DNA from: Folioceros fuciformis
Taxonomy: Eukaryota
NCBI GenBank assembly: GCA_049999805.1
Contig: JBNGIO010006185.1
Span: 96,170 to 160,169 of the forward strand
Direction of reading: 5' to 3'
DNA length: 64,000 bases
Shown here: one piece after another, positions 13,861 through 60,242 of the stretch
Numbering within the stretch: position 1 is the first letter of the stretch
How the letters are laid out: each line of letters begins with the position of its first letter
Translations under genes and position numbers: made by a program
Notes under the pieces: generated by a model
Databases searched by the model: none
Told to the model about the DNA's origin: nothing
What the model saw: only the letters and a program-made list of their open reading frames with translations

Positions 13861-16800
13861 CTACTTCTTGTAGCCAGCCTGTTTCATCCACAAGGACCAC
13901 CTTGCAGCCTCCAAAAGGTTTCCACTCTTCTCAAACGCTGAGATCAGGTTCGTGTACGTTACGTGGTCTGGTAAGAATCCAGCATCGTTCATCTCACGAA
14001 GCAGCTTCACTGCTTCATCTGGTTGACCAGCGTTTCCATATGACTTGATCAGGGTGTTGTACGTGTACTTATCCGGTGCCAAACCTTCGCTCCGCATCTT
14101 GTCTAACACCGCTTGGAGCTCTTCCATCATTCTCTGCTTACCATAGACATTGAGCAAGATGTTGTAGGTGGACAGATCTTTCTCACACCCTGCTCGCTCC
14201 ATGCGTTCAAGTGCATCCTCCATGTTGCTTAACTGCCCTGCCTTTCCATACGCATCAGCCATGGAGTTGAAAGTGTCCAGACCAGGTGAGAAGCCTGCCC
14301 TTTGCATTTCCCACAAAGTTTCTTCCATCTTTGCAAAGTTCTTCACCTTACCATATGCATTCACGAGGGTACTGAACGATATTCGATCCGCAACTCCCTG
14401 ATCCTGAGCCAGCTTTAGAACTTTGCTTGCCCTCTGCAGGTATCCTTGCTTGCCATACAAGTCAATCATGACGTTGTACGTGATAGCGTTGGGCGCAAAT
14501 CCGGAATCCAACATATTGTTGAAGACGTTGGCAGTTTCCTCCAAAGGCAATGCTCGCCCACAGCAGTTGATGACGCAATTCGACATAGCAGCATCCAGAT
14601 TGATGCCAGCTTTCACCATTGCCCAGTACATATCTGCTGCTTCCTGCATGACAAGATGACTCTACTCAGTCTCTACTCATGGCAAGGAGAAACGGCATGA
14701 TGGAAAAGCAGGCAACCCAGGAACGACTGGCTTAGGCCTTGAGATTACTTGCCTGCTGCAGTCCGTTTTTCTGGTACACTCGTATCATGGCATGGAATGT
14801 GTACGCATCAGGTACAAACCCGCCTTCTTCCTGCATCAGCTTTAAGGTTCGTATTGCTGACTCGTGAATTCCAGCTCGCATGTACACATTGAGCATCACA
14901 TTGTAGGCCACCGAATCCAGCTTCTTCGTCGACGCCCTCAGTTGATTAAAAAGCTCCTCTGCCTTTGCGACTCTGCCCATCCACCCGTACACATCGATCA
15001 TGGTGCACCACATGTCCAGACCCGCCGAAATGCCTTCTGCCTGCAGTTGCAAGAACAATTGTGCAGCGTCCTCGTAACGGCGGGCATTGCGAAGACCTAG
15101 CAGCAGGTTGTGGCATAAACTGGGTCGGGGCAGCACCTTGGCCTGCCGTAGAACTTCGAACTGCTCCAGAGCTCTCACTGGCATCTTTAGCTTCAAGTAC
15201 ATACTTAAAATTACAGAGGAGCACTCAACATCAGGCAACCACCCAGCTTCTGACATTGCAGAGAAAAGTTGAGGAACCCTGTTAAGCTTGTGACAAGCAT
15301 CATGCGCCTTGACAACTCTTTCGAGAATTCTGGCATCTGGATTGACTCCCATTTCTGTCATCTCTATCAACATCCTTGACACAGCACCTAGATTGTTCGC
15401 CTGTCCATACAAGCGTATGAGCGTGCCAAAAGTAGCCCGACTGGGCGCGATTCCTGCAACCTTCATTTCCTCATAGAAGTGCACAGCTTCTTTCAGCTTG
15501 TTGGCCTTTCCACAGGCACCTACCAAAGAGTTGTAGGTCACCTCATCTCCTTTCAGCCTAGACTCCTGAACCTGTCTGAAGACAAGTATCACCTTGGGGA
15601 ACATTTTAGCCCTGCCATAGGCCATGATCATGGTATTGTACACGACGAGGGGTAAGTTGCCTGACTCCTTCAACTTCTCCATAACTCTCTCACACTCCAG
15701 AACCTTCCCTTGCCGGGAAAACACATTCAGTTGAACAATGAGATTCTCTCTATCTGGCATCACATTCCGGATTGCCATTTGGCTCACAAGTTGCTCAGCT
15801 TTGTCAGCAAGCCCCGCTCTCATATACAACACAATCATCGAAGAGTAAGCATTGCAGGGCTCAGGACCGCAGGCCTGCATGTGAGCAAAGACTCTCTCTG
15901 CCTCGGCCAGCCTGTTAGCCTTCTGGTAGATGATCATGAGCATACCATAAGTCACCTCATTGGGTGAAATACCATTGCTCAACATTCTGTTGAACCATTC
16001 TGTAGCCTGTTCTGAAGAACCCGAACTCCCAGCAGCAAGAATCAGAGTATTGTAAGCATACAACTCAGCTTTCGAACCCATGCTCTGTCTGCGCATCTCC
16101 CCTAAATAAGTATGCACGGTTTCCCAATCTCTCTCTTCTGCCAGTATCTTGAGCACAATACTGTAGGCGTGGGAATTGGACTTGGCCCTCCCTGTCTGCC
16201 TCATCCAGCGAAAAAAGTGAAGAGCCTTTCTATCTTCTTCCAAAGCAGCCAAAACCTTGTTCAAGTCCGTGTTCGTCAGTTTCAACCCGGACCTCTTCAT
16301 AATATCCTCGATATCTGCTGCCGCCATGCGTGTGGCTCGGAGGGACTGAACCAATGCACCAAGCTCCTCCCTCGACCTACAACCTGATCCAGTTTCTGCA
16401 TCGTAGGTAGATTTATCTCGATCTCCACTATCACCATCATCGGTGAACAATTGCAGAAACTGCCCTTCCCCATCCTCAAACCTTCCCACAGGCTCCACAC
16501 ACTCCCCATGTACCTCCTCCCTCCTCTGTTTGCCTTCCACCTCCAACGTCTCCATAAACAACTTGTTCCTGCTCATGGAGGACAAACTCAACGTCTGAAC
16601 ATCCTCGGGCTCCACTACCCTGGGAAGCACTCGAGCTGCCACCATTCTTCCTCCTCCTGATCCCACCGGTTCACTTGAACTCGCTCCCATCCATCTTCCG
16701 TACACACAAAACCCCCCACATTGTGCTCTCTGCCCTGCCAAACCCCTGAGACCAAGACACCGCAAATCCAACGTTTGGCACTCACGCCCACATGCCCAGC

Positions 16801-16915
16801 TCAAGTCATGGGACCCGCTTACGACGGAAGAGGCAGACCGCGCACACACCATTGCAGGCATTCCTGCAATGCAGACGCTGCCGTTAAATAATTGCAGCAA
16901 GCTGCATTCCAACAC
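13861..16915 (-). CDS. BFA2: P-class PPR protein, At4g30825/BFA2-like, two exons
   Basis: Long P-type PPR arrays and the C-terminal LEAARWSLWMKQ motif typical of this family. A transit-peptide-like N-terminus is present. Intron 14752-14644 joins the two ORFs in frame. Start codon uncertain. Confidence 0.82.
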
Positions 16916-17552
16916 CGCACCTAACAGCGCCCATTCTCCGTCACCAACTGCTGCATCCTCCTACATCCTCTGAACTCGCTCACCAGGAACACCAGCCTGC
17001 TCGAATCCTGCCCTCACTCAAGAAAGTCCCAGAATCCCACTGTTCTCCACCTGCTACACTTTGACCAAAGCTTCCCTCAGAAATGCAAAGCACCTCCAAC
17101 CACCACCGCTTTCCGTTCCTCTGCAGGCGTCCACAACCCATCACCCAAAATCCCACCTCCGCAATGTCTTCACAAAACGCAATCTCCACAGCCTCGTCGG
17201 CCACCAGAACACATTCCTGCATCCCAGATTTCCTCGAAGCTCATCTGCTGCGATTCCAGATAGAGGTCCTGCAAACCGATGGTTCGTGTCCTCACACTCG
17301 TAAACTCTCTACCCGGGAAAGCATAACATAACAGTCGCTGTCTTAACTAAACGCCCTGTGCGAAATTGTTTCTCAACTCTACGGGTTAAGGCCGCTCTAA
17401 GACACTGCAATTGGCCTCGGCACGAAGGCTAGAGGAGGAGGAGACGGTCGGAGGCACGGACGAGGCGATCTTGCCTGCAGAGCAGTCTTGTGGAAGGAAG
17501 GAATTGAGGGCGGGTTTTGCAAGTAGCGCCATTTTCGGAAGAGTGGAGCAGC

Positions 17553-18794: not shown

Positions 18795-19910
18795 TCAGAT
18801 GAAAGGCAACAACAAGTATTCGATGTAGAACAGATTCCAGATGAAGCGGTAGAAGTCGCTGATGGCTTTCCTAGAGTACTTCCCAGCATCCAGGGCCCAG
18901 GTCTGATACACGAGCGCGGCAGCAAGCAAGGCGTGGCTGGGGATCAGCACCTGGGGCTTGAAGGCTTGCGGCAAGGCTATGGCCGCAGCGATGGCGCCCA
19001 CGTAGTTGGCCAGTAGCAGCCCTGCTCCGAGCCAGGAGATGGTTCGCACTCCCAGCTTGGTGGCGAAGGTGGAGATGTTGTACTTAATGTCGCCCTCCAC
19101 ATCCGGGAGGTCCTTGGTGATGGCGATGACGGTAGCGAAGACGGTGACAAAGATAGTGATGAAGACGACAGAGGGATTCCAAGCGAATTCCAGCCCGATG
19201 GCCGCGCGGGTGGCGTAGTAGACCCCGAAGTTGAGTAGGAAGCCACGCACTGTAGCGATGATGAGAAACGCTGGTACCGCGAACCTCTTGAGCCGCAGCG
19301 GCGGGACGGAATAGATAGCACCCAGCCCCAGCCCGAGCGCGTAGAGCCCGGTGATGAGCGGGCCGAAGTGTGTGCTCACAATCCCCAGCCCCAGCGCCGC
19401 GAACCCTACCACCATCGCCCAGGCCGCCGGCACCGAGAGGTCCCCAGCTGCGATCGGCAGGAAGGGCTTGTTCACACGGTCGATTCCCACGTCATAGATC
19501 TGGTTGATCCCCACGATGTAGCCGTTCCCGGCCAACAGCGCCAGGAGGCCTCGCAGCGCCTTGGGGAGCAAGCGCCAGTCCACCAGCTGCGGATTCTCCA
19601 GAAGCGCGCGGGCCACCAGCGCTGTGGTCCCGATGAGCGTTCCCCGGATAGTGTGCGGCCGCACGAAGCGCCAGCATGCATCCAGATGCAGCTGGAATGC
19701 CGGCCCGTCCGGGGCCGCATCGCTGCTGCTGCTGCCGCTCCTGCACCTCGCCTGCCTGAGCAGCCTGGACCCCGACCCGACGTTGGAGCCGATCCTCTTG
19801 CAGCTCAGTCGCGGTAGCAGCCGAGGCTGGAGCGTGCAAATTAGGTCACCTGCACTCTGCAGGCTGCAGAGCGATGTCGCAGCGGGAGAGACCAGCAGCC
19901 TGCATTCCAT
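18795..19910 (-). CDS. HST: Homogentisate solanesyltransferase (UbiA family), intronless
   Basis: [57 protein letters not shown] and [10 protein letters not shown] are HST-type motifs. Transit peptide present. Confidence 0.93.
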
Positions 19911-20712
19911 CCTGCTCCTGCTTGCGGTGTGAAAGGACAGGATGAGGAACGTTGAAGGAGACTGTACCTAAGAGGTGCGCCAGCTGCTAAGACCGTATGG
20001 AGTCGCATGCATCAACGGGATCATCTGCGAAGCATTCGTATCTGCGTTGGCGGCATTTGCAATCGACCTGAGCGCGACGCTGAGGGCGGCTGAATCGATT
20101 CCGTGGCTCAGACTGAGTGGAGTAGAATCCATCCTCAGAATCGATTCAATAGGGAATCTACAGCATCCGTTGCCATCACAAGGCTAACATACACACGCAG
20201 CTTCACCGCTTTATAACACGATTTTCAACCACCGCTCTGATCCCTACCGGATAGGACTGACACGCGCTTCTCAGTCTCTTGATGGACAGCTTTGGAACAC
20301 GTATGTTACGGGAAGGTGGAGAACTAGGTTAAAGTTTGGCTTAGTGGATCATCCACATGAGACATCCAACCCTGAGGAAGAAGTCGACGTAGCTACCAAT
20401 TCCCACGACATCTTTACTTCAAACAAGGGTGTCAAAGACGAGAAAGCATCACAAACGTCTTTTTTATCGGATCAGGTTAAGCTCTAATCAACTATGTCTA
20501 CTCAGTCTATCAGGAGGAGGTGCTTACAACCTATCAGCAGCCTTACTTTACATACATGGAAAGCCAAATCTTCCATGATTTGCAGCAGCAGCCTTATTAC
20601 CGAGCCCACGGTGGTTCCTATGTACTGTACAATTTGATCCTCGCCGTGTGCAAAGGATTATTCACTTACATGATTCGCGAGCCGCATGAAGCTGTTTGCT
20701 GTGTAGAATCTG

Positions 20713-36166: not shown

Positions 36167-36629
36167 CTACGGACGCAGACGAGCCAAAGGAGGCATCCCA
36201 GGCTCATTGCCGGGGCTAGCACCACTGGGTGGGTTCCTGGGACCCTTCATGTCGATCCCCTCCTGCCGACGCAGACGAGCCAAAGGAGGCATCCCAGGCT
36301 CATTGNNNNNNNNNNTCCTGCCGACGCAGACGAGCCAAAGGAGGCATCCCAGGCTCATTGCCAGGGCTAGGACCACTGGGTGGGTTCCTCGGACCCTTCT
36401 GGTCGATCACATCCTTCAGAAGCCGAGGAACTAGAGGAGAAATCCCTAGCTCATTGCCAGAGCTAGGACCACCAGATGGGTGCCTGGCATCCCTCAAGAT
36501 GTTGCCATCAATCTCGTTGCTGTTGGGCAAGTGACTCCCAAATATGCCGACAAGTGTGCATGCAAACAGGAGGAGAAGAGCGAGGAAAACGGTAGAGAAA
36601 GATCGCCCCAACCCCACAAATTTTGTCAT
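36167..36629 (-). CDS. Secreted precursor with repeated CLE/IDA/PIP-like RxxPSGPxP peptide domains
   Basis: The signal peptide MTKFVGLGRSFSTVFLALLLLFACTLVGIFG is followed by 32-aa units containing RHPSGGPSSGNE, RNPPSGPSPGNE and RNPPSGASPGNE. A 10-N gap lies inside the array. Confidence 0.72.
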
Positions 36630-46899: not shown

Positions 46900-49710
46900 T
46901 TGGAATTCACGCAAAGCCATAGTCTTCTTACTTGAATGATAAACAGCAGAGTGCAATTTCTTGACAATCTTGTCCGCCACCTTAAAGTCAAGAACCTTGA
47001 CAGCCTTTGCAACTACAAGGCCATAGTCTTTTTACTTGAATGATAAACAGCAGAGTACAATTTCTTGACAATCTTGTTTGCCACCTTAAAGTCAAGAACC
47101 TTAACAGCCTTTGCAACTACAAGCACCCTGTGGTGAGTAACATAATGAGTTTAAGCAAAATACAAATTCTCGTTACGCAAAAACGCCTTCGCCCTTGCTA
47201 ATCATGACTGATGTTCCATCGCTTGTAAATCCTTTTTTTTTTTTCATATCCAAATTTAAGAGTTATAATTTCTCAATCAAGGTGTTAAAGATTCCTTTTG
47301 CACGTGCACTTATTGTGTTGACTAGGTTCAAAACCTCCATTTGTACAATCCCATTATACAAATAATACACATAAATAATTATGTATTGGACCATCGCCTT
47401 GTCTATCTCCTTATTTATAAGTATCTCAGACTATGGATTTGGATGCAACCTCTCTTTTTGTTATTTGTGTAAACAATTGGCTATGATACACATAAATAAT
47501 TATGTATTGGACCATCACCTTGTCTATCTCCTTATCTATAAGTATCTCTCATACTATGGACTTGGATGCAACCTCTCTTTTTGTTATTTGTGTAAACAAT
47601 TGGCTATGAGAACCATGTGCTCCTCGCAAGCATTATCTGTAAGATATGAATCATATGTCTTTACCTCTGGAATATCTTTCACTCCACTATCCCTCGTGGA
47701 ATTATAATGGGTCCTCGTACATATGGAAACTCAAATCCTTCATAACAATGAAATAGATAAACTTCAAAAAGTTGAGGGTTTAGGGTTTAGGGTAACAGGA
47801 CAAACTAAGGTGTAACAGGACAAACTAAGGACAAACTAAGGTTGCCGGTATCTTTTTTTGGAAAAATACAATGCCAAAGTTCGTTGCATGGTTGGTTGTT
47901 GAGCATGGGCTTGGGCTTGCTCCATCTTTAATGATGCTAAACAATATGTACTCCTTGCATGGTTCTCTAATGCACTTTTATAGAAGCTTTGACTACCAAC
48001 TTTTATCTAAGCTTTAGCGAAAACCTTAGTTTGTCCTGTTACACCTTGACCATGTTTTTCACAAACAACATAAAACATTTGATTTTCTCCATTAATTGGA
48101 TGCAACTCCACCCAATGAAGAGTCTTATCTTTTGCACCTTTCGTTTCTTTTGACTCGGTTGGCTTGTTTGGCTATTATCGCACCTCTTTGTTTGGTTATC
48201 ATGTACAGCCCCTCCAAAAAAACTAAACGCCAAACTTTAAGAAAAAATGAGCCCTCTTTAACTACAATTGTTTTTTAAAATAATGTAGAATATGAAGAGC
48301 CAAAAAATAAAGCTTTAAAATATATGAGCTCGAAAAGAGATGAGCTGTAGAAAAGAAAAACTCTAACCTCAAAAAGTTTTAAAATAGATGAGCTCAAAAA
48401 AGAGATGAGCTGTAGAAAAGAAAAACTCTAAGCTCAAAAAGCTTTAAAAAAAACTCTAAGCTCAAAAAGCTTTAAAATAGATGAGCTGTAGAAAAGAAAA
48501 ACTCTAAGCTCAAAAAGAAATGAGCTCTAGAAAAGAAAAACGCTTACCAAGAAAGAACAACAAAGAATAGGGAAGAAGAATAAAGAATAAGAAAGAAGAA
48601 AAAGAAGCACACCAATCACAATGAGTGATACTCCAAATGCTAGTGTTGTAGCCTTATGTAGTCTTGAAGGATGTCTATTTATAGCACGATAGGATAAGAG
48701 TTTTATGTAAGCTTATGGTTGGGATGCCATTTCTTAGTCCATCTTCATGGATGAGTGTGTGCATATAAACAAATTATTGTGTATATTAATAATTATATTT
48801 AAATTTTATTTTCTATTATTAAAAAAAGATAAAAAGTCTCATCTACTCCAAAGATTGGAGCAACAACTCGAATAGGGCCAAAGGCCAAAAGGGTACTAGC
48901 TTCTTCCAACATCATTCTTAAAAGCTACCTACTATTCCCAAAATGTCATGATGTGGAATAACAAAAGGCCTACTTACCATCCCATCATGTTGAAGACGCC
49001 ACTTGACCTACGCTTGTTGCTGTTCCAAAAACCTTCGACATCGCTTGACCTACGCTTGTTGCTGCTCTAGAAACCTTCGAGGCCGCTTGACCTATGCTTG
49101 TTGCTGTTCTAAAAACCTTCAACACCGCTTGACCTACGCTTGTTGCTATTCTAAAAATTGCGTCGACTAATGCTGTTTGCAAAATAATGTTTACACGTTG
49201 TCGAAAGAAGGCCTTATAGAGGAGAGTTGGTAGCCTCATAGGACATACTTTGGTACACTATTGAGCTTTTCTTGTTCTTTAGTGAGAGCAAGTCTATTCT
49301 AAAATATGTTATACAAGTTCCTTAATGCGTAAGTCTATTCCAAATATGATATACAAGTTCCCTAATGCGCAAGTAGAAACCTTGAATGCTTCAAACTTCA
49401 AAGAAGATGGAAACTTCAAAGTGATCTAACCAAAGATATATACAGTTTATTTAGAAGAATATATAATTAAAATATATATTTGAATTGTAAAAAAACTCTT
49501 AAATTCATTTTAAAATACGAATTACTTACTATCTCACTTTTTTTATAAAGTTTTCTTACTACCCCTATTCAAAGATGGTATATTATGCAAACCCCATAGC
49601 CACATCACAAAGAAAAAAAGCTAACATGGACGATAATAGATACAAAAAGAATTCGATTGTGCCCTAAGGACGATAATAGATACAAAAAGAATTCGATTGT
49701 GCCCTAATAG
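46900..49710. repeat. AT-rich repeat-derived region with multiple tandem duplications
   Basis: Duplications at ~46915/47020 (~105 bp), ~47365/47486 (~120 bp), 48300-48540 (gatgagctgtagaaaagaaaaactctaa), 49000-49155 (gacctacgcttgttgctgttc) and 49628/49668. Confidence 0.75.
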
Positions 49711-50101
49711 GGAAGAAATTGAATGGACGGCAAGCCCGTTCAACGGTCATTCTTTAACTGACCGCATATCACAATTTGCAAATTGTTGCTACAATCCCTT
49801 CAGGGATTGTAGTCTTCATAGTTAAAGAATGATCGAAAGTTAGAAGATATGCATGGTAATGTCCCATGGGGTCAACCACCAACGAGAGCCCTCCACCACA
49901 GAGGGGGCTTCACCTCTTCAAAGGGCTTCGAGAAACGAGCTGCCGCACCACGAATCTTGTCCCTAGTAGGACAGGACAGGACGACGCATAAAAAATATCA
50001 CGCAACCATGGCCAGCAGTTCCAGCAGCTCAAGCTGATCTGCCTCAATTTTGCACCTTGATTCCTCAGAAGTTGGGAGCAGAGCAACGAATCTGGAAGGA
50101 A

Positions 50102-50626
50102 TCAAAAGCAACAATCACAGTCAAAAGGGCAAAGAGACGTGCCGCCGGAATCCTTCTTGAGCCCCAGCTCCTCTTCAGAGTACACGGTGAAGCCTTCCGC
50201 AGTCTTCCTCCTTGCTTTGGCGGGAACAGTAGGAGCGCCCCTTTCGCTTTCCCTATCTCGAGTTTTTTGCTTCGCCTGTTTCTTCCCCGTTTGCAGTTTC
50301 GGAGATTTGTTGCGGCTAGCATCGGCCTCATGGCTGTCATCGGCTTGCGAAGGTCGCCGCTTCCGCTTTCTCTGAGCGAAAATCGTCTCTATCTCATCGA
50401 CCTCATTTGCATCCGGATGCTGGTCTTTCTCGTTTCTGGCAGCCTCCACATNNNNNNNNNNNNNNNNNNNNNNNNNNNNNNNNNNNNNNNNNNNNNNNNN
50501 NNNNNNNNNNNNNNNNNNNNNNNNNNNNNNNNNNNNNNNNNNNNNNNNNNNCTCGTTTCTGGCAGGCTCCACATCCACGGTCGCTTCCTGAAGGCGTTTG
50601 GCCTTGCTACGCTTCTTCAACCCCAT
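50102..50626 (-). CDS. DUF1764 family protein (spans a 100-N gap)
   Basis: EVDEIETIF and the C-terminal RRKTAEGFTVYSEEELG...GGTSLCPFDCDCCF* are DUF1764 hallmarks. Confidence 0.88.
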   Translation of the reverse strand: MGLKKRSKAKRLQEATVDVEPARNEXXXXXXXXXXXXXXXXXXXXXXXXXXXXXXXXXXVEAARNEKDQHPDANEVDEIETIFAQRKRKRRPSQADDSHEADASRNKSPKLQTGKKQAKQKTRDRESERGAPTVPAKARRKTAEGFTVYSEEELGLKKDSGGTSLCPFDCDCCF

Positions 50627-50804
50627 GGCGGCAACTGCCGCGCGTAAAGCTTACTCCGCGACTTGATCGTCAAAGTCTCACATGACCTCAGTTTTGCATT
50701 TCGAGTACTAGCATATATATTTCAAGTATATATAGACAAAGTTTCGAGATTGTTTTAGTAGTCTCCAATTCGGCGCCGCAGGGTTTCTGTTTCTGGCAGC
50801 AAGT

Positions 50805-53800
50805 ATGATCGACTCTGTGTTGGTGATGAACACGCATGGCAAGCCCCGGCTTACCAAATTCTACCAGCCATTGGTACCCTAATCTCACGGCCGGGTAGCT
50901 GGTGGAAGGATGTGACACAATGCATGCTGATTCTGGTGTTATTTCTTCGGTGGATGTGTAGAGCAGTCTGAGGACAGGCAGCAAGAGGTTATCCGCTCAG
51001 TCTATTCCGGTACGGGCTGCGTTCTTGGATGTTGAGGCTCTTGGACGGCGTCCGCAGCAGGAATTGGACCACAAGGCTGATGTTTTGTAGGTTGTTGTTT
51101 GCCACAGTATTATCAAGCAGGCCACCGGAGCTGTGTAGCTTTGTTGAAGCTGACGATATTATTGGCCCGGTATATACCTCAGGGCACTGTTTGAGATGAT
51201 CTGGCAAGAAGGATTGCGTCCTGAGCTGACGTCTGGCTTCGCTTTGCACAGGATAAGAAGCTTGTGTATAAGCACTTCGCAACGCTTTACTTCATCTTCC
51301 TGGTAGACAGGGCTGAGAGCGAGCTAGGGATTCTGGACCTCATTCAAGGTGGATCTCTTGTTATTGGTACCCTGTACGTGTCTGCCGTGCTTGGTTTTGC
51401 TCTCAGCTCGTATGGCCATCATCACCTTTTCTTGTAGTGGTTCTGCTATCAGCTCATATTGGCATCTTATTGTATTGTAGTGTTTGTGGAGACGTTGAAC
51501 CGTTGCTTTAAGCATGTCTGCGAGCTTGATATTGTTCACAACTTTAACAAGGTGCTCTATTCTGTCCACATTTCTTGAATACCCTTCCCAATAACAGAAC
51601 AGAATTGGTGCTGACAGCCCTTGGGCATAGCTCCTGCTTAAAGTTATTATGTCTTGAGAGCGTTCCACGTTATAATATAAGAAGCTACAGGAATAAGTGC
51701 TAACGAGGCTACAGTGGAAAAGCCGCAGTGTCAGTGGAAGAGGGTCCCAGGGTTTAAACTAGCCGGATCAAATTGCGCAGAAACTTTGTAGGCACTTTAG
51801 AGATGGATGAAATGGTTACTCAGGAAGCAGAGGGAGCAAGGAACGTTCAAATGGAATTAACTGCTCAGGATTCTTTCACAGGGCCTGTGATACGTGAGGT
51901 TGTGATCTCTGAGACACAAATGGATGGTAGTGATGGAAAAGAGCAGCCTGCAGTTTCTTTCGAAGTGACCACAGATGTACAGCTTGCCGACGAAATAGTT
52001 TTCCAGGAAGCAGAGGGAGCAAGGATCGTTCCGCTGGAATCAACTGCCCTGGATTCTTTCACAGGGCCAGTGATACGTGAGGTTGTGATCCCTGAGACAC
52101 AGATGGATGGTAGTGAGGGTAAAGAGCAGCCTGCATTTTCTTTTGCAGTGACCACAGATGTACGGTATGCCGACAAAATGGTTATCCAGGAAGCAGAGGG
52201 AGCAAGGAACGTTTTGCTGGATTCAACTGCTCAGGATTCTTTCACAGGGCCAGTGATACGTGAGGTTGCGATCCCTGAGACACAAATGGATGGTAGTGAG
52301 GGAGAAGAGCAGCCTGCATTTTCTTTCGCAGTGGTCACAGACGTACAGTATGCGGATGTTCCAGATGGTCATTCGTTTAGGGGTGTCCCACGCTATTATC
52401 GCCACAGCCTTGAAGCCCTCCGTGAAGCTGTCAGCAGTTGGAATTCTAAAGGGAGTCTGAACTTTGGAATCCATCTGGGAGACATTGTAGACGGGCGTTG
52501 TCCTAGAGATGAATCTGAAAGGGCTGTTGGGAAAGTACTGGCAGTATTTAATTCCTTTCAGGGTGGCCCTTTCTTCCATATTATTGGCAATCACTGCCTC
52601 TATAATCTTCCTCGGATAGTGCTGAATGAGATGCTTGCTATCCCACCTTCGCCAGATGGTCGGTCATATTATGAATTTAGCCCATCAGAATTTTTCAGGT
52701 TTATCATTCTGGATGGATATGACGTAAGTGCGCTAGGATGGCCCCAAGATCATCCACATTCGGCATTGGCCAAGCAGGTTTTGGATGAGAAGAATCCGAA
52801 CACGAACAAAAATAGCCCAGAGGGACTTCGAGGATGTGCAAGGAGGTTTGTTAAGTTTAACGGTGGGGTGGGAAAGGAACAGATTGCTTGGCTGGAAACC
52901 GCGCTGATGGACGCAAGCAACCTGAGGCAGAAAGTGATTATATGTTGCCATTTGCCGCTTCATCCAGGTGCCAGCAATCCTTCATCCCTGTTGTGGAATT
53001 ATTACGAGGTCTTGCTGCTGCTACAATCGTTCAAGTGCGTTGTGGCTTGCTTCAGTGGTCACGCCCACAGATGGGGCCATGTGGTTGACTCTTGTGGCAT
53101 TCACCATCACGTCTTTGAAGCAGTTTTGGAGTGTGCACCAGGGACAAATGCCTTTGGTCATATCAATGTCTATCCTGATAGGTTAGTCCTGGTCGGGAGC
53201 AGCGGCATGGCATCCATGGAAATGCCTTTTAGGTCGTAAGAGCTGTACTTCTTGGTCAGCGTACCGGAAGCGGCAAAGCCAAATGAGGAGAAGGGATATT
53301 AATGATTATCCTAATAGGTTTAGTTCTGGTAGGGAGCTGCGGCAATGTATCCATAGAAATGCCTTTCCGATGGCAAAAGCTGTGCTACAACACAGCTAGA
53401 GTAGAATGAAAATCAATGTGGCGTCTGCTTACAGTTTTCCACAGGGCATTAGCACCTCCCGTCCTCCTTCCTGAAAAACTGCTCTCCGTTATTGACCACT
53501 TTCTAGCCTTATTTATCTGATTCAGATTTTCCGCTTAAAGCTTCAGGGGTTTCAAAGCCGACATGGTTGTGCAGGTACATACTATACTAGATGAGATCAT
53601 AATGGGGGGCCAGGTTGTTGAAACGAATCCAGCGGAAGTCATGAAGACAGTGGAGGACATTCTCAAGTAAATCAACCACACCTGTTTCTGCTTCATATTC
53701 AGATTCAACTCTGAATCTTCTGTTTGTGGTGTGTTTAGCGACGCATAATGGACGTCACTTTGTATTTGTAGGTTGGAACGGGCATCAGATCCTGCGCCAG

Positions 53801-53829
53801 TTGTTGTGAAGGCTCAAGGGAAGCGATAG
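50805..53829 (+). CDS. AP3S: AP-3 complex sigma subunit, 7 exons, with a ~2-kb intron hosting another gene
   Basis: Exons 50805-50873, 50967-51009, 51108-51169, 51252-51348, 51481-51551, 53575-53666 and 53772-53829 give MIDSVLVMNTHGKPRLTKFY...LVYKHFATLYF..ESELGILDLIQVFVETLNRCFKHVCELDIVHNFNK/VHTILDEIIMGGQVVETN. Confidence 0.92.
51803..53239 (+). CDS. ADPRM: Mn-dependent ADP-ribose/CDP-alcohol diphosphatase (metallophosphoesterase), intronless, nested
   Basis: FSFAVVTDVQYAD, GVPRYYRHSL, IHLGDIVDG, IGNHCLYN, FNGGVGKEQ, CCHLPLHP, FSGHAH. Confidence 0.9.
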   Translation: MDEMVTQEAEGARNVQMELTAQDSFTGPVIREVVISETQMDGSDGKEQPAVSFEVTTDVQLADEIVFQEAEGARIVPLESTALDSFTGPVIREVVIPETQMDGSEGKEQPAFSFAVTTDVRYADKMVIQEAEGARNVLLDSTAQDSFTGPVIREVAIPETQMDGSEGEEQPAFSFAVVTDVQYADVPDGHSFRGVPRYYRHSLEALREAVSSWNSKGSLNFGIHLGDIVDGRCPRDESERAVGKVLAVFNSFQGGPFFHIIGNHCLYNLPRIVLNEMLAIPPSPDGRSYYEFSPSEFFRFIILDGYDVSALGWPQDHPHSALAKQVLDEKNPNTNKNSPEGLRGCARRFVKFNGGVGKEQIAWLETALMDASNLRQKVIICCHLPLHPGASNPSSLLWNYYEVLLLLQSFKCVVACFSGHAHRWGHVVDSCGIHHHVFEAVLECAPGTNAFGHINVYPDRLVLVGSSGMASMEMPFRS

Positions 53830-53985
53830 TCCCAAGATTGCATTAGCATTTACTGTTGTCACTTTATGTGACAACAAATCCAGCTGCTCTGTGGACTTCG
53901 TTGTACATCCAGCATCCATTCTTGACGCAACAGTTTTTTTTCTTTCTACGAGAGTAGAGCTTTACATCGGACCGGTCTTGATCCC

Positions 53986-54891
53986 TCAAGTACGATGGGT
54001 CATGGATGACACCAGGGAGACCCTTTTTGTCACAGTTGGTCGGTCTCTAAGTCTCCCTGCAATGTCACTTTTCACGTCCTCAACAATTTTCCTCGGTGTC
54101 TGATTTGCATCAACAACAAATATGCCTTCTTCCTTTTCTTCCATCTCAAGTGCCTCGATCTGAGATTGCAGCAGTGAGGGCGGCATGTAATGGTTGCCTT
54201 CCTTGTGTCTAGCGACTACTCGTGTCATGAACAGATCATACGATCCCTGCAAATAGACAAAGAGTACACTGCCAGAGAAGGCTCCCCCACCTCTCCCACC
54301 CGAGTTTACGAGAGCTGGATCCGCAGTCCGCAGGCTGTCTCTATACCGCTTCTTTAGAGCAGAACAAGCTAACACTACCATCTCACCCCGCACAATCTTG
54401 CTGTGCAGAAGGTGCTTCAGTTCTTCTAACCATGGCCGGCGATCATCGTCCGTGAGAGGAATTCCAGCTGCCATTTTCTCTGCAAACGGCATGCAGGTCT
54501 CAAAAACTGAGCGTACAAAGCCGACTCCTCTCCTTCCACCCCCAGAACTATATACCTTTGTTTTGCTGCGAGTGAAAATCATCAGCATCAAAGAAAGAAC
54601 ACTCCAACTCCCTTGCCAGCTGCTCACCGATGGTCCTACAACAGCAACAAGTCTAAATTGATATGAGACTGCAGAAACGAAGAAGAGAGTCGTGAGAATC
54701 TCGAGTGCAGATAAATGGAGCTCACGTCTTCCCGGCTCCAGAGACGCCCATCATAATCACAGCTAGTTCTGAGAGAAAAAAACACTTGTGGTGACCTCGG
54801 TGGTTGCCCTCAAACGAAAGACGGCAAGGGAAGCTGGTGATCATGTCGTACCTGGCCGGTGAAAGCCATCAGTTCGAAATTCATGATCCAT
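53986..54891 (-). CDS. GNTK: Gluconokinase (GntK/IdnK family), multi-exon
   Basis: AVIMMGVSGAGKT P-loop, FFDADDFH, KMAAGIPLTDDDRRPWL, VLACSALKKRYRD, HYMPPSLLQSQ. Confidence 0.9.
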
Positions 54892-55316
54892 TGCCTCTTC
54901 GAACAGCAGAGCAGGGGTACTCTTACCCTAGGCGAGAGGCTGGAGGCAATGACGCAGCAGGACAGAACTTGTCACCAAACAGGACATGACGAGATTCTGG
55001 AACGTGTTGCACCCTGCTGCACAAGTGCAGGAATGAATGTACTTCGATTCCATCTGACCTGATGCCATACCATGCACACAAGTATTGCCACGCTTTTCTC
55101 TTCCAGGAAAGAGCAGCAGGCGTGGTGTGTATGTTGTTCCAAAAGTCCCGAAAAGAAGGAAGATGGAGAAGTAAGGGGACTTTCACTTTACGGAAACGTC
55201 ATCTTTCATCTCGGGTTCGAGTGTGTGCAAAAATGCATGCTGAGGACGTCGATGTGTAGGAATGCAAGATTCTGGATCGCACTCGCTGATGCTGCTCTCT
55301 CAGGATTCCCAAATTG

Positions 55317-56130: not shown

Positions 56131-56822
56131 TTGAGGATGCCAAAGGTGGAAAGGCTCTTGAACTGCGAGCGACCACCATTAATGCTCGATTTGGGCTCAC
56201 CGCCTGGCGCGGTGATGCTGGTTGCGGCTGGAGTTGGGATAGGAAAGCTGGACGACGAGAATTGTGTAGATGGTGGCACCTTGTGGGTCTGTGAAGCCAT
56301 GGTGGAGTGACGATGAAATGTCGGGGTGTTGAGGGCCGCTTGGTTGCGTCCAGCCTTAGGAAGGCGAGCAAGCAGGAATGGTGTAGACAGCTGTCTTCTC
56401 TGCAGGGTGGGTCTTTCTTGTCCGTTGCAATTCAGCTGCCTTGCTGGAGAAGGAGGTCTCTGATGTTGCGTTCACCTGGCTTTGCAGTTGAGAAATCTGG
56501 TCGGGAGGTGGTGCCGGGCAGGTTTCTTGGTGGTGCTTCGAAAGGGTGGAAGAGCAGCTTGAGTCAGGTGGTTTGATTGGGTAGCGTTCGTTTCACCGCC
56601 TGTAGGGAGCAGAATGACAATACGTGCTGTGCAGGACGCGGAAAGGGACTTCGTTGGGGAGTACCAGAGAGTACATCCGGGTCTTAGTCTGGACGGGTTC
56701 TTGACAGCAGCTGACCACCATGGGGTTGAGCTGAGAGCTCAACTTCAGGACTTTGGGAGGTCCAAGTTTCTTCCGCCAGCGTTATTCTGCCAAATTTTTC
56801 TTCTTCTTGAGGTCTTGTAGGG

Positions 56823-59800
56823 ATGTGGAAATTCTTCATGAAGGAATGGAATGCTTTCTGTCTTGTTTTCACAATCCCCTCTTGCAGGACAGCGAGGTGT
56901 GAACGGGCTCTGCAGTCATGGACTGGAAGGAAGCAGTCCAGGGAGGGACAGCTGAATGCTGCCGTTGAAGTGCTGAACGATCTGGTGAGGGAAGGATTTT
57001 ATGCTCCAGCATTGCTCTGGTATCATGTCCTCAGCATGTGCGTTGTCGAGAAGGATGTACATGTTGCCGAGCATGTCCATGCTCTTATTCTGGAAGGTGG
57101 GCAGGAGTCAAACACATTCGTGGCCAACCATGTTATCCGCATGTATGCTTCTCATGGAAGGTTGCAGCAGGCACTGCAGGTGTTTTCTAGTCTGGCTACT
57201 CCAGACTCCTCAATGTGGGCTTCTATTATTCTGGCACATACTGGGCAGGGGCGGCCTGCAGAGGCCATCAGAATGTATCAGCAGATGCGACAGTCAGTGG
57301 TGAAGCCCAATAACTATGCTTTCATGGCAGCCCTGAAAGCATGCTCTTGCGCACTGGATTTTGCTGCAGGGAAGCAGGTCCATGCTGATGTTCTAGAAAG
57401 CATAGTCGAGCCCAATCTTTTTGTTGGCAACTGCCTCGTGGACATGTATGCGAAATGTGGGGGCTTAGAGTATGCCCGCCGAGTGTTTGACACGTTGCCC
57501 ATTAGGAATGTGGTTACGTGGAACGCTATGATTGCCGGATATGTTCAACAGGGATTTGCTCAAGAGGCCCTTGCTCTATATGCCACTATGCCAAAGGATG
57601 GCAGCATCTCAGCCGATCGTGTAACGTATGTGTGCCTACTGAAAGCATGCGCTAGTGTTAGAGCCTTAAGTGAGGGGAAGACGCTTCATTACCAGATTCA
57701 AGGCACAGAATGGGAATCTGACGTGGTTGTTGGCAGCAGCTTGGTGGACATGTATGCCAAATGCGGGACATTAGAGCATGCTCGCGGAGTTTTTGACAGG
57801 ATGCCTGCTAGAGATGTCGTAACTTGGACAGCCTTGATCGCTGGATATTCTCAACAAGGGCGTGCTCAAGAAGCCCTGAGCCTGTATTCATGTATGAGAA
57901 ACGAGGGTGTCAGTACAGCTAATCATATCACATTTGCGTGTGTCTTGAAAGCATGCGCCAGTTTGGGAGCTCTCCGTGAAGGAAAGGAGCTTCACATTGA
58001 GATCCAGGATAAGGGCATGGAATTTGATGAGGTTGTTAGCAGTAGCCTTGTTGATATGTACACACAATGTGGCAGCCTCCAAGATGCTCGGGGATTGTTT
58101 GATAGGTTACCTGTGAAAGGTGTGGTGGCCTGGAATGCCCTAGCTAGAGGATATGCTCAGCAAGGGCTCCCTCAAGAAGCCCTTACTTTGTATGCAAGGA
58201 TGCGCCGGGAGGATGTGCTTGCCAGTCACGGTACCTCTGTGTGCCTCTTAAAGGCATGTGCCAGCATTTGTGCCTTACACGAAGGACGACAGCTACATTT
58301 GCAGCTTGAGAGAAGAGGACTTGCAGCGGATCTCGTTATTGGGAGCAGCCTAATAGATATGTACGCAAAGTGTGGGAGCTTAGAGGATGCTCGCAGAGTG
58401 TTTGATAGCTTGCCTGTTAAAAATGTGGTGACATGGACTGCCATAATTTCAGGGTATGCACAGCAAGGGGTTGCTCAGGAAGCTCTTGCCCTCTACACAA
58501 GAATGCAACAGGAAGGTATCACATCAGTTGACCGTGTCTTGTTCATGTGCCTCCTGAAAGCGTGTGCTGGCATCGGCGCTTTGCAGGGGGGAAAGGAACT
58601 GCACACCCAGATTCAAGAACATGGGCTAGAGACCGATTTGGATGTCGCAAATAGCCTGATCGACATGTATGCAAAGTGTGGGAGCTTGGAGGATGCCTGC
58701 AGGGTGTTTGAAGGATTATCAACAAAAGATGTTGTGACTTGGACTGCCCTCATTTCAGGACTTTCCCACCACGGGCTTGGTGAAGAGGCTCTTGGTGTTT
58801 ATGCAAGTATGCGGGCTGAGGGCATGACGCCAGCAAACAATGTAACTCTTGTATGCCTTTTAAAAGCATGCGGCAGCGTTGGAGCTCTAGATCAGGGTAA
58901 ATGGATTCACTCCCTGATTCAGGACAGAGGCTTAGACGCTGAAATGGTTCTTGGCAACTGTTTGGTGGATATGTATGCAAAATGTGAGAGCCTGGAAGAT
59001 GCGCGTGGAGTGTTTGACAGATTACCTGTAAGAGATGTCACGATATGGACGGCCATGATAGCAGGATATGCTCGGCACGGGCCTGCTGAGGAGGCCCTTG
59101 TCCTTTATGCTAGTATGCAAGAGGAAGGTCTTGTTCCAGCGGACCATGTGACATTTGTATGCCTTCTTAAAGCATGTGCTGCTGTTGGGGCTCTACATCA
59201 AGGGAAGCAGCTTCATATTCAGATCCAGGAAAGAGGATTTGAGAGTGAAGTGGTTGTGGGCAACAGCCTGGTGGATATGTATGCGAAATGTGGAAGCTTA
59301 GAGGATGCCTTCATCACGTTCGATAGATTACCAACAAGAAATGTGGTGACATGGAATACTTTGCTGGCTGGTTACAGCCAACATAATGATGGGAGAAAGG
59401 CAATCCAGTGTTTCCAAGAGATGCTGCAGCATGGGGTCGTGCCTGATGGCTCTACCTTCCTTTGTCTTTTCGTGGCATGCAGTCGCACGGGTCTAGTTGA
59501 CGAGGGGCTTCAGTTCTTCAACAAAATGGTGCATGAGTATGGCATAAACCCTACAGTTTCTCACCATAATGCATTGGTTGACCTTCTTGGGCGGTCAGGC
59601 CGTTTACATGATGCAGAAAGTATCTTGCAAACCATGCCAAGCACCAACAACATCGTCGGCTGGGTATCTTTGCTTAGCTCCTGCAAAGTCCACAGTGATC
59701 TGGATCGAGGAGCCCGCTGTTTTGACCATATAGTTGGAGTTGAGCCCCAACATTCTGCGGCATATGTGTTGCTGGGAAACATCTATGCAAATGCTGGTAG

Positions 59801-60242
59801 GTGGCGGGATGTAGAGAGGATAGAAGCTCTGAGAAAGGCCGCAGGTGCTTGCAAGAAGCCTGCAAGGGCCTGGATTGAGGTGAACAACAAGGTTCAGGCA
59901 TTTACTGTGGGGCAAGACAGTGATGACGTCTTGTCCAAGCTAAGGAGTGTGAATCATCACTTAAATGGTGGAGGACCAAAACTGGTTTCTGAGGCAGACA
60001 GGGAAGATGCTTTGTGTGGACATGCTGAGAAACTGGCATTGGCTTATGGTCTACTGAACACTGCAGATGGCACAACTTTACTTGTCACCAAGAACCTCCG
60101 CATGTGTAATGACTGCCACATTGGCACCAAGGTCATGTCAAGAGTCGAAAAGAGAGAGATCGTAGTCAGGGACGCACATTGTGTTCACCGTTTTGTGAAT
60201 GGATTTTGTTCTTGTGGCGATGGTCAATCATCAGTTTGCTGA
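56823..60242 (+). CDS. PLS-class PPR protein with DYW:KP domain (putative U-to-C organellar RNA editing factor); N-terminus probably from upstream exons (~56313 on)
   Basis: About 8 PLS triplets, E1/E2, then KKPARAWIEV (KP box), HAEKLALAYGL, KNLRMCNDCH, VRDAHCVHRF..G.CSCGD. Confidence 0.9.
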   Translation: MWKFFMKEWNAFCLVFTIPSCRTARCERALQSWTGRKQSREGQLNAAVEVLNDLVREGFYAPALLWYHVLSMCVVEKDVHVAEHVHALILEGGQESNTFVANHVIRMYASHGRLQQALQVFSSLATPDSSMWASIILAHTGQGRPAEAIRMYQQMRQSVVKPNNYAFMAALKACSCALDFAAGKQVHADVLESIVEPNLFVGNCLVDMYAKCGGLEYARRVFDTLPIRNVVTWNAMIAGYVQQGFAQEALALYATMPKDGSISADRVTYVCLLKACASVRALSEGKTLHYQIQGTEWESDVVVGSSLVDMYAKCGTLEHARGVFDRMPARDVVTWTALIAGYSQQGRAQEALSLYSCMRNEGVSTANHITFACVLKACASLGALREGKELHIEIQDKGMEFDEVVSSSLVDMYTQCGSLQDARGLFDRLPVKGVVAWNALARGYAQQGLPQEALTLYARMRREDVLASHGTSVCLLKACASICALHEGRQLHLQLERRGLAADLVIGSSLIDMYAKCGSLEDARRVFDSLPVKNVVTWTAIISGYAQQGVAQEALALYTRMQQEGITSVDRVLFMCLLKACAGIGALQGGKELHTQIQEHGLETDLDVANSLIDMYAKCGSLEDACRVFEGLSTKDVVTWTALISGLSHHGLGEEALGVYASMRAEGMTPANNVTLVCLLKACGSVGALDQGKWIHSLIQDRGLDAEMVLGNCLVDMYAKCESLEDARGVFDRLPVRDVTIWTAMIAGYARHGPAEEALVLYASMQEEGLVPADHVTFVCLLKACAAVGALHQGKQLHIQIQERGFESEVVVGNSLVDMYAKCGSLEDAFITFDRLPTRNVVTWNTLLAGYSQHNDGRKAIQCFQEMLQHGVVPDGSTFLCLFVACSRTGLVDEGLQFFNKMVHEYGINPTVSHHNALVDLLGRSGRLHDAESILQTMPSTNNIVGWVSLLSSCKVHSDLDRGARCFDHIVGVEPQHSAAYVLLGNIYANAGRWRDVERIEALRKAAGACKKPARAWIEVNNKVQAFTVGQDSDDVLSKLRSVNHHLNGGGPKLVSEADREDALCGHAEKLALAYGLLNTADGTTLLVTKNLRMCNDCHIGTKVMSRVEKREIVVRDAHCVHRFVNGFCSCGDGQSSVC

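Follow-up and report, generated by a model that had tools for sequence, protein, structure and literature searches.

An ADPRibase-Mn-like reading frame inside an intron of a predicted AP-3 sigma gene of Folioceros fuciformis

Architecture of the AP3S locus

The DNA considered here, hereafter the window, is a stretch of 64,000 nucleotides from Folioceros fuciformis (contig JBNGIO010006185.1, positions 96,170 to 160,169), and all coordinates are counted from its first letter. Between 50805 and 53829 its plus strand carries AP3S, a predicted gene for the small subunit of the vesicle-coat adaptor AP-3, and, inside the fifth intron, a second reading frame, ADPRM. The AP3S coding sequence (164 codons plus stop, 495 nt) is distributed over seven exons, from which the subunit would be made by splicing:

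50805..50873, plus strand: AP3S exon 1, with the ATG at 50805; Pfam Clat_adaptor_s 1–22 (E 0.0021, 18.5 bits, below the gathering score)
50964..51009, plus strand: AP3S exon 2; AG acceptor and GT donor preserve the frame; gap-free against the AP3S part of a Riccia protein
51108..51169, plus strand: AP3S exon 3; splice model and alignment to the Riccia AP3S part
51252..51348, plus strand: AP3S exon 4; Pfam Clat_adaptor_s 54–85 (E 1.7e-08); PDB AP-3 sigma-1 (E 4e-12)
51481..51551, plus strand: AP3S exon 5; last residues ..NFNK, phase 0 at its end, followed by GT; Pfam 87–109 (E 1.4e-06)
51552..53574, plus strand: AP3S intron 5, the host intron; 2,023 bp, GT..AG
53575..53666, plus strand: AP3S exon 6; preceded by AG and beginning VHTILDEI; Pfam 110–136 (E 8.8e-06)
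53772..53829, plus strand: AP3S exon 7 with the stop codon; exons 6 and 7 align to residues 694–742 of Riccia P0033

The anatomy observed is regular except in one respect. All six introns have GT-AG borders and their lengths are 90, 98, 82, 132, 2023 and 105 bp: the fifth exceeds its neighbours approximately 20-fold, the other five spanning 82–132 bp. The first-pass annotation of this DNA had put the end of exon 5 at 51551 and the beginning of exon 6 at 53575, and had given ~80–130 bp for the remaining introns; the GT and the AG are present at these borders and the measured lengths bear out that range. When the exons are joined in silico, exon 5 meets exon 6 phase 0 to phase 0, the frame is restored and the product aligns without gaps to the AP3S parts of the Riccia protein.

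Pfam scanning covered exons 1, 4, 5 and 6, and their four translations all match PF01217 (Clat_adaptor_s) in collinear order, three of them above the gathering score. Exon 4 alone retrieves AP-3 sigma-1 (9c5c_S) and yeast AP-3 sigma (7p3x_S) with E values of 4e-12 and 1.5e-08, as against 0.011 or worse for AP-1 sigma and 0.27 or worse for AP-2 and AP-4 sigma. By these matches the predicted protein belongs with AP-3 sigma, to which it is nearer than to the AP-1, AP-2 or AP-4 counterparts.

The nested ADPRM reading frame

The large intron accommodates the following elements:

51803..53239, plus strand: ADPRM ORF, 478 codons plus stop (53237–53239), intronless and uninterrupted
52307..53236, plus strand: predicted ADPRibase-Mn catalytic domain, ORF residues 169–478, folded by AF2 from residue 167

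The ORF lies wholly within intron 5 (51552–53574), on the strand of its host and with zero exon overlap, which upholds the earlier report of an intact, intronless, same-strand ADPRM frame between AP3S exons 5 and 6. In a phmmer comparison residues 169–469 align with positions 2–314 of the zebrafish ADPRibase-Mn chain 2nxf (E 5.2e-58), and the family-specific segments of 2nxf (about residues 20–35, 65–70 and 150–195) all fall within the aligned block, with short gaps only. Pfam Metallophos extends over ORF residues 174–423 (E 2.1e-08). The available text of PMC3407115 defines a five-block signature, DX[H/X] .. GDXX[D/X] .. GNH[D/E] .. [G/X]H .. GHXH, and all five blocks have a counterpart in the window: D180-V-Q182, G226-D-I-V-D230, G262-N-H264-C, C-H383 and G419-H-A-H422. 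ADPRM thus resembles ADPRibase-Mn (zebrafish 2nxf, rat and human ADPRM) over its full length and in all five metallophosphatase blocks; unlike the signature, it bears a C instead of D/E after GNH, a residue that is also C in 10 of the 10 aligned plant and algal homologues, and it carries a 166-residue repeat extension. On the strength of these alignments the nested ORF is an ADPRibase-Mn-like member of the metallo-dependent phosphatase superfamily. The activity associated with the family is the Mn2+-dependent hydrolysis of ADP-ribose and CDP-alcohols. According to the accessible portions of PMC3407115 and PMC4334965, the family is restricted mainly to vertebrates and plants, and no characterised plant ADPRM was found in those portions.

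As a full-length enzyme homologue occupies an outsized intron, a chance origin of the nesting signal is dismissed on sequence grounds. That the ORF is instead a dead copy, a pseudogene or recent array of duplicated fragments left open by chance, is very improbable. The locus does appear structurally unstable, with a triplicated 5′ end and a partly duplicated 3′ end, and the ORF departs from three family-invariant columns, with I in place of V at 301, W in place of G at 424 and A in place of P at 445; yet 97 of the 100 columns invariant among 10 homologues are kept, all 478 codons are open, every metal-binding block is present and the ORF is collinear down to its last residue with the 10 homologues from plants and algae. 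The fold, predicted by AF2 with moderate confidence, also weighs against decay: pLDDT is below 50 for residues 1–166, the domain folds from residue 167 with means of 48 to 97 per 10-residue block, apart from four short stretches below 50, and values at or above 70 are reached in 204 of the 478 residues. In a 36-row tree the end branch of the window ADPRM is ordinary (0.44, against a median of 0.29). The best identity is 65%, and no second ADPRM copy is present within the 64-kb window.

Repeats at both ends of ADPRM

Two duplications, which together with the Riccia protein go beyond the earlier reading of the locus, border the enzyme domain:

51809–51991, 51992–52174 and 52175–52357, plus strand: a 183-bp unit in three tandem copies, all in frame, detected by TRF
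53296..53386, plus strand: degenerate duplicate of the ADPRM 3′ end (blastn self-match, 79%), with its source at 53160–53249

The first 166 codons of the ORF are a threefold 183-bp repeat of ADPRM's own 5′ end (period 183, 3.0 copies, 88% matches, 0 indels, score 857). Each copy comprises ~37 codons of N-terminal extension and the opening 24 of the enzyme domain, and the domain continues from copy 3 only. The 3′-flank duplicate covers the last ~26 ADPRM codons and the stop (tblastn 76% over 17 aa). Local tandem duplication tripled the 5′ end in frame and partly doubled the 3′ end, presumably after the nesting arose.

Differences between the copies are evenly spread over codon positions (5/8/9, 8/7/8 and 5/6/9), and the codon changes divide into synonymous and non-synonymous ones as 5:13, 4:14 and 7:11. 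Counted by codon position, the repeat copies give no signal of purifying selection, the counts being small and the 20–23 differences per pair compatible with weak constraint. The block F-S-F-x-V-x-x-D-x-Q-Y-A-D contains nine family-invariant residues, of which copy 1 retains seven, copy 2 eight and copy 3 all nine. The two extra copies look unconstrained, and they may constitute a disordered N-terminal tail or an untranslated leader. Both keep the ORF open and its frame intact at 12% divergence, a state that would also suit a weakly constrained translated tail. Translation may truly begin at one of two in-frame ATGs of copy 3, the candidates at 52178 and 52286, or at 51803.

Conservation of the nested arrangement

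An equivalent order of parts is found in the liverwort Riccia sorocarpa. The 783-aa predicted protein R1sor_019914 (P0033) reads AP3S 1–115, ADPRM, AP3S 116–164: its residues 188–302 correspond to AP3S 1–115 of the window (83/115 identical, no gaps), residues 379–693 align with ADPRM ORF residues 151–465 (181/315 identical), and residues 694–742 correspond to AP3S 116–164 (32/49 identical, no gaps). As a predicted protein keeps genome order, the AP3S exons of the Riccia genome must lie on either side of ADPRM, all on the same strand. The host is broken after ..NFNK and resumed at VHTILDEI, and the codon boundary of the interruption is identical in the Riccia model and in the window. The synteny that the first-pass annotation had proposed to look for in related genomes has therefore been encountered in one liverwort gene model, at the same break point. 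P0033 differs from the window in being a merged gene prediction, which begins with 187 unrelated residues and clips ADPRM by its final ~13 codons. Furthermore, its ADPRM part has a long non-repetitive N-terminal extension in common with the Marchantia ADPRM record P0017, whereas the window has a 61-residue repeat in three copies. P0017 itself, 459 aa long, stands alone, and its N-terminus spans the region that the Riccia model joins to AP3S.

A word-index search with P0033 residues 188–745 returned 25 proteins, both parts being present in P0033 only. Of the 150 proteins found by an exhaustive search of representatives with P0033, 149 match the ADPRM part only and one (P0262) the AP3S part only. 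Among 407 collected proteins, 284 match ADPRM, four match AP3S and P0033 alone matches both; for species in which the two genes are correctly annotated apart, such protein searches are silent on nesting either way. The AP3S-like record P0262 tracks AP3S to ..NFNK and then proceeds for 58 residues with no AP3S match, as if into the intron.

In the 36-row tree the window ADPRM groups only with P0001 (98/99 support) and falls outside the liverwort, moss, seed-plant and Closterium clades. Since the break point is shared and the window ADPRM stands outside the liverwort clade, we infer, from one predicted protein of one species, that the nesting is old and would predate the split from liverworts. 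Misplacement of ADPRM between AP3S exons by assembly or scaffolding is barely credible. A gap of 100 N (50452–50551) with near-identical 23-mers at both sides does lie 250 bp upstream of AP3S, but it is the nearest one and 50805–53829 is free of N; moreover, the repeat copies are 88% and not 100% identical, and Riccia, an independent genome, has the same order and break point.

The neighbourhood bears on the same question of lineage: PPR-DYW genes flank the locus, and a homogentisate solanesyltransferase ORF nearby shares 75–79% identity with proteins of liverworts and mosses equally.

Transcription of the nested gene

The flanks of the ORF within intron 5 contain several candidate signals:

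51671..51680, plus strand: candidate core promoter, the TATA-like tataatataa, located 123 bp upstream of the ORF ATG
51790–51791 and 51801–51802, plus strand: two acceptor-like AGs from in-silico AG enumeration
53405..53410, plus strand: AATGAA, a poly(A)-signal-like hexamer, the sole match of 12 hexamers looked for in the interval from the ADPRM stop to exon 6

AP3S and ADPRM probably represent an old host/nested pair in which ADPRM is an independent single-exon gene inside intron 5. It would form its own transcription unit, starting in the 251 bp of intron that precede the ATG or inside the repeats; polymerases engaged on AP3S would read through ADPRM, which would then be spliced out with intron 5. 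Both the independent promoter and a poly(A) site, the latter within the 335 bp between the ADPRM stop and exon 6, are what we infer from the layout. An independent start is plausible in view of the TATA-like motif, an ATG-free leader and the stand-alone Marchantia P0017. The motif, noted earlier at ~51671, is indeed found there; no ATG occurs from 51650 to 51803, and the ATG of the ORF is the first after the motif. The motif does not match TATAWA, and a canonical AATAAA is absent between the ADPRM stop and exon 6.

The two acceptor-like AGs bear on the alternative put forward in the first-pass annotation, an unlikely one, that ADPRM is a 3′ terminal exon of AP3S used alternatively and transcribed from the AP3S promoter. 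In a first version exon 5 would be joined to 51792, yielding a dicistronic RNA in which AP3S stops after two further codons: as had been pointed out, tttgtag ending at 51791 gives GCA CTT TAG, and the ADPRM ATG follows two bases on. In a second version exon 5, which ends in phase 0, would be joined to 51803, and the AG at 51801–51802, which the first-pass annotation had not listed, would place the ADPRM ATG in frame in an AP3S(1–115)-ADPRM fusion. Exon 6 splicing versus intronic polyadenylation would make the products mutually exclusive. The tttgtag resembles the real acceptors of exons 5 and 7, and agag that of exon 2; nevertheless, 24 AG dinucleotides, tttgtag among them, occur between 51598 and 51803, so that an acceptor-like site ahead of the ATG is expected by chance, and an AG directly before an ATG has a frequency of ~1 in 16. 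Nothing specific in the sequence supports a terminal exon driven by the AP3S promoter.

Translation of a shared RNA would also face obstacles. Reinitiation is inefficient after an ORF of 117 codons, the length of ORF 1 in the dicistronic version. The hypothetical transcript of exons 1–5 joined to 51792 has four ATGs in the 356 nt before the ADPRM ATG, where ~5.6 are expected at random; one of them is in CGCATGG context, and the AP3S ATG itself has A at −3. Bicistrons read by leaky scanning require start-codon depletion before ORF 2, as stated in the available text of PMC11291117, and in the hypothetical 356 nt neither a weak ORF 1 start context nor ATG depletion is seen, which argues against leaky scanning. 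A sigma subunit cut at residue 115 would be devoid of Clat_adaptor_s profile positions 110–142, and the Marchantia P0017 has its own N-terminus. Coupling would fit the long-conserved nesting, but nested pairs may persist merely because they are hard to separate. The 58 non-AP3S residues of P0262 beyond ..NFNK are in keeping with a shared transcript, and a precedent in which nested-gene activity forces intronic polyadenylation of the host is described for H13/Mcts2 in the accessible part of PMC13309782.

A further scheme, quite improbable, regards AP3S/ADPRM as a regulatory unit fixed long ago in bryophyte-grade land plants, in which transcription or polyadenylation of ADPRM would compete with removal of intron 5. 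The cell would toggle between full AP-3 sigma and ADPRM, or a truncated sigma ending in NFNK. The in-frame triplication at the 5′ end would supply further internal start sites or tune them. If so, vacuolar/lysosomal trafficking would be coupled to ADP-ribose or cyclic nucleotide turnover. The Riccia break point, the in-frame acceptor at 51803 and P0262 are compatible with this scheme; none demonstrates it.

Strong donor-like sites occur within the ORF at 52724 (ACGTAAGT, phase 0) and 53182 (AGGTTAGT), and host transcripts might splice from inside ADPRM. A Riccia-like AP3S-ADPRM-AP3S sandwich protein was considered for the window and rejected: the donor-like site at 53182 is phase 2 and exon 6 would be frameshifted. 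An Rfam scan of 49500–55000 with E up to 1 found nothing in intron 5; the one match, to snR43 in intron 6, is sub-threshold (E 0.87; 19.5 bits, where the gathering score is 60) and was taken as chance.

Origin of the nested gene

How ADPRM came to reside in the intron is a separate question. Retroposition, the insertion of a processed cDNA of an intron-containing parent, is possible if doubtful as an origin, and is compatible with ADPRM being an independent gene today. It would account for an ORF that is intronless across the full family length. The position of ADPRM, a single exon in sense orientation within an intron, points the same way. In the available text of PMC3814207 the same-strand nested genes of Drosophila are mainly single-exon. 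On the other hand, the intronless state is not distinctive here, as the solanesyltransferase at 18798–19967 and other conserved genes of the window are also single ORFs, and no other ADPRM copy that could be the parent is present in the 64 kb. No target-site duplication, terminal inverted repeat, A-tract or poly(A) remnant is found around the ORF, although such traces would be expected to decay if the insertion is as old as Riccia implies.

Comparison with other nested and bicistronic genes

Nested genes are common in animals and poorly catalogued in plants. AP3S/ADPRM is an ordinary nested-gene pair and not a new kind of gene organisation. In Drosophila melanogaster same-strand cases make up 28.7% of nested genes, and 72.5% of these same-strand genes have a single exon, according to the accessible part of PMC3814207; ADPRM, contained wholly in one intron, takes this majority form. 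Unlike the Drosophila examples, the pair is found in a plant with a compact genome and introns of ~100 bp, it is apparently conserved over deep bryophyte-level divergence, and its inner member is a conserved housekeeping-type enzyme, in contrast to the young, testis-biased gene described in the same available text (PMC3814207). No plant survey of nested-gene orientation, and no link between ADPRM and AP3S, was found in the open-access literature.

Mouse H13/Mcts2, in which transcription of an intronic nested gene can end the host early, offers a working model for interference between ADPRM and AP3S (accessible part of PMC13309782); it differs in being an imprinted mammalian locus under the control of DNA methylation. 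The nested member of that pair, Mcts2, is a sense-oriented retrogene. The bicistronic nuclear transcripts of green algae, as presented in the available portion of PMC11291117, also comprise two same-strand ORFs on an mRNA that AP3S and ADPRM could share in principle, with a metabolic enzyme as ORF 2. They differ in that here ORF 1 has 117 codons and A at −3, ATGs are undepleted and the genes are nested and not tandem. Two same-strand ORFs with a metabolic enzyme in second place are similarly the organisation of plant CDC26-TTM3.

A break point common to a liverwort and a non-liverwort plant would place the pair among the older conserved nested arrangements of land plants, and the locus would offer a clean test case for the way in which a compact genome, with introns of 100 bp, handles an intronic gene. 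It is also an annotation trap: predictors fuse both genes, as in the Riccia model, or shorten AP3S, and the triplicated 5′ end leaves the ADPRM start codon ambiguous for annotation.

Host gene and nested reading frame

When positions 50000-54600 were read and splice-compatible boundaries enumerated, an AP-3 sigma adaptor gene (AP3S) emerged on the + strand, with seven exons amounting to 495 nt, that is, 164 codons plus stop.

AP3S exons (splice-compatible boundaries)
50805-50873, + strand, exon 1
50964-51009, + strand, exon 2
51108-51169, + strand, exon 3
51252-51348, + strand, exon 4
51481-51551, + strand, exon 5, ending in phase 0
53575-53666, + strand, exon 6
53772-53829, + strand, exon 7

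All six introns are of the GT..AG type; intron 5 spans 2,023 bp, whereas the other five measure 90, 98, 82, 132 and 105 bp. The four exon translations of scannable length all match Pfam Clat_adaptor_s in collinear order (1-22, 54-85, 87-109 and 110-136), three of them exceeding the gathering score, and exon 4 by itself retrieves AP-3 sigma-1 chains at E 4e-12, with AP-1, AP-2 and AP-4 sigma at 0.011 or worse. The domain matches and the closer affinity of exon 4 to AP-3 sigma-1 therefore identify the host gene as AP3S, in agreement with the first-pass annotation. No second AP3S copy was found in the 64 kb window.

The long intron carries a single long same-strand open reading frame (ORF), which extends from an ATG at 51803 to a stop at 53237-53239 (478 codons) and corresponds to ADP-ribose diphosphatase (ADPRM). 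Residues 174-423 match Pfam Metallophos, and residues 169-469 are collinear with the zebrafish ADPRibase-Mn structure (PDB 2nxf; E 5.2e-58). A protein search returned at least 468 proteins at E 0.001 or better from 8,000 candidates scored, the closest relative among the matches listed being 65% identical. Aligned with ten of its protein matches, the ORF is unbroken up to the family C-terminus, conserves 97 of the 100 columns invariant in these homologues (the exceptions are I301, W424 and A445) and contains the complete set of metal-binding blocks as described in PMC3407115. The uninterrupted alignment, the invariant columns and the metal-binding blocks together indicate that the ADPRM gene is intact and intronless, and the earlier proposal of such a gene nested on the same strand in AP3S intron 5 is borne out. 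The 64 kb window holds no second ADPRM copy.

Conservation and age of the nesting

Among the 120 ADPRM matches listed, one bears an adaptor small-chain domain: P0033, the 783-aa gene model R1sor_019914 of the liverwort Riccia sorocarpa. Residues 188-302 of this model correspond to residues 1-115 of the window AP3S (83/115 identical, no gaps, ending ..NFNK), residues 379-693 align to residues 151-465 of the window ADPRM ORF (181/315 identical), and residues 694-742 correspond to AP3S 116-164 (32/49 identical, no gaps, starting VHTILDEI). Since gene predictors cannot reorder a genome, ADPRM in Riccia must, to judge from this predicted protein, lie between the same two AP3S exons on one strand. 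Residues 1-187 of P0033 are unrelated to either gene and show only a weak sub-threshold DUF724 match; they probably stem from a third gene, lying upstream, that was merged into the model. In Marchantia, the ADPRM record (P0017, 459 aa) shares 70% identity with the ADPRM part of P0033 and possesses an N-terminus of its own over the stretch joined to AP3S in the Riccia model, which suggests a stand-alone gene.

P0033 was the only fused model among the 25 matches of one search, and none occurred among 150 representatives listed; an AP3S match was found in 1 of 284 ADPRM relatives, a count that cannot reveal nesting where annotation is correct. The locus is a host/nested gene pair, a known kind, and on these alignments its break point is conserved in a liverwort.

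An ADPRM tree was built from 36 rows, comprising the window, 16 species-labelled matches and 19 others, with the remaining matches omitted. The window ADPRM groups with the database record P0001 alone (98/99 support) and falls outside the liverwort, moss, seed-plant and Closterium groups, all of them well supported. A single-ORF homogentisate solanesyltransferase in the window (18798-19967) is 87% identical to one database record and 75-79% identical to liverwort and moss proteins alike. The window is gene-dense, with PPR and PPR-DYW genes, and many PPR genes and high gene density are described for Anthoceros (PMC8075897). The plant would thus be a land plant of bryophyte grade, outside both liverworts and mosses, and most simply a hornwort; if so, the AP3S/ADPRM nesting would be older than the hornwort-liverwort divergence.

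ADPRM may have reached the intron by retroposition. Neither a poly(A) remnant nor a target-site duplication nor a terminal repeat was found around the ORF, and an old event would have shed such marks.

Expression of the two genes

The simplest reading is that ADPRM and AP3S would constitute two transcription units, and this is the most likely arrangement. Three features were counted in its favour: a TATA-like motif 123 bp upstream of the ADPRM ATG, the ATG-free stretch 51650-51803, and the 335 bp, with one AATGAA, that separate the ADPRM stop from AP3S exon 6. ADPRM also has the form of the same-strand nested genes of Drosophila, which as reported in PMC3814207 are mostly single-exon (72.5%), an excess that its authors ascribe to selection against mis-splicing. 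Certainty is tempered by two observations: no canonical TATAWA or AATAAA was found for the ADPRM unit, and host transcripts could be caught at the donor-like sites 52724 and 53182 within its ORF.

The first-pass annotation had proposed instead that exon 5 is spliced to ADPRM on RNA from the AP3S promoter. Besides the tttgtag acceptor-like site there is an AG at 51801-51802, not noted in the first pass, whose use would place the ADPRM ATG in frame behind exon 5, which ends in phase 0. A shared transcript is possible, but it is less likely: 24 AG sites precede that ATG, leaving the proposal without specific sequence support, and the 356 nt of the hypothetical upstream part contain four ATGs, with an A at -3 of the AP3S start. 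This ATG count and the A at -3 do not fit the conditions given for leaky-scanning bicistrons in PMC11291117.

Interference between AP3S and ADPRM in the manner described for mouse H13/Mcts2 (PMC13309782) would be a reasonable expectation by analogy. A 172-aa AP3S-like record from another organism (P0262) is 66% identical to the window AP3S model over a 139-residue BLASTP alignment; it tracks AP3S to ..NFNK and continues for 58 residues that lack an AP3S match, as if into the homologous intron. In this second species the intron may have been retained, or the gene model may have been cut short at that same intron; the run-on past NFNK is a lead towards host/nested interference and no more.

Tandem duplications in the locus

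The first third of the ADPRM ORF is a tandem repeat with a period of 183 bp (3.0 copies, 88% matches, 0 indels).

ADPRM repeat copies (codon register)
51809-51991, + strand, copy 1
51992-52174, + strand, copy 2
52175-52357, + strand, copy 3

Of the 61 codons in each copy, approximately 37 belong to the N-terminal extension and the remaining 24 form the beginning of the enzyme domain; only copy 3 runs on into that domain. Differences between copies are even across codon positions (5/8/9, 8/7/8 and 5/6/9), with non-synonymous changes in excess of synonymous ones (13:5, 14:4 and 11:7), a pattern that reads as neutral drift. Of the nine residues in the first strand and metal block that are invariant across the family, copy 3 alone retains all, whereas copy 2 has 8/9 and copy 1 has 7/9. 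In an AlphaFold2 model based on an 11-row alignment (mean pLDDT 58.8, pTM 0.61), residues 1-166 have pLDDT below 50 and the alpha/beta domain is folded from 167. The drift-like pattern, residue loss in copies 1 and 2 and the modelled fold therefore point to residues ~167-478 as the functional enzyme. The two extra copies would be either a disordered tail or a leader sequence, and the ATGs at 52178 and 52286, both in frame, are candidate alternative starts.

The 3' end of ADPRM (53160-53249, the last ~26 codons plus stop) recurs in degenerate form (79%) at 53296-53386. Within AP3S intron 4, 51420-51445 duplicates the intron 4/exon 5 acceptor region 51463-51488, 43 bp downstream, with 73% identity; this duplicate accounts for intron 4 being longer than the other short introns, and it supplies a decoy ..cttgtag acceptor whose use, as the sequence reads, would shift the frame. 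These three features, none of them noted in the first-pass annotation, point to past small tandem duplications across the locus, and it is unusual that the 5' end of ADPRM has been triplicated in frame.

Neighbouring genes

Other ORFs in the window
13861-16960, - strand, two adjacent PPR ORFs of 742 and 266 residues
18795-19967, - strand, homogentisate solanesyltransferase-like UbiA prenyltransferase, one 390-codon ORF
50102-50650, - strand, DUF1764-family ORF, divergent upstream neighbour of AP3S (Pfam E 3e-23 for 50105-50449)
53986-54868, - strand, 254-residue ORF, convergent downstream neighbour, ending ~160 bp past the AP3S stop
56811-60242, + strand, PPR protein with E motif and DYW deaminase domain, 1,143 residues, single ORF

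The DUF1764-family ORF starts ~180 bp from the AP3S ATG, and given this spacing the two probably have a common bidirectional promoter region. A 100-N scaffold gap (50452-50551) interrupts this ORF, and the same ~23 bases recur on both sides of the gap; the likely cause is either a short tandem repeat or a join made by over-scaffolding. A second gap in the window, of 10 N, lies at 36306-36315. No Pfam family matches the 254-residue ORF at E 0.001 or better, and an ORF piece upstream of it bears a P-loop-like GxxGxGKT motif. The PPR ORFs are organellar RNA-editing-type factors, which are typical of hornworts, lycophytes and ferns. Relatives cover 58-99% of the solanesyltransferase ORF, so that this gene seems intronless or nearly so here. 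Its top-scoring record, P0288, shows 67% identity over 58% of the query and is labelled Artemisia annua, a label that looks out of place among bryophyte matches.
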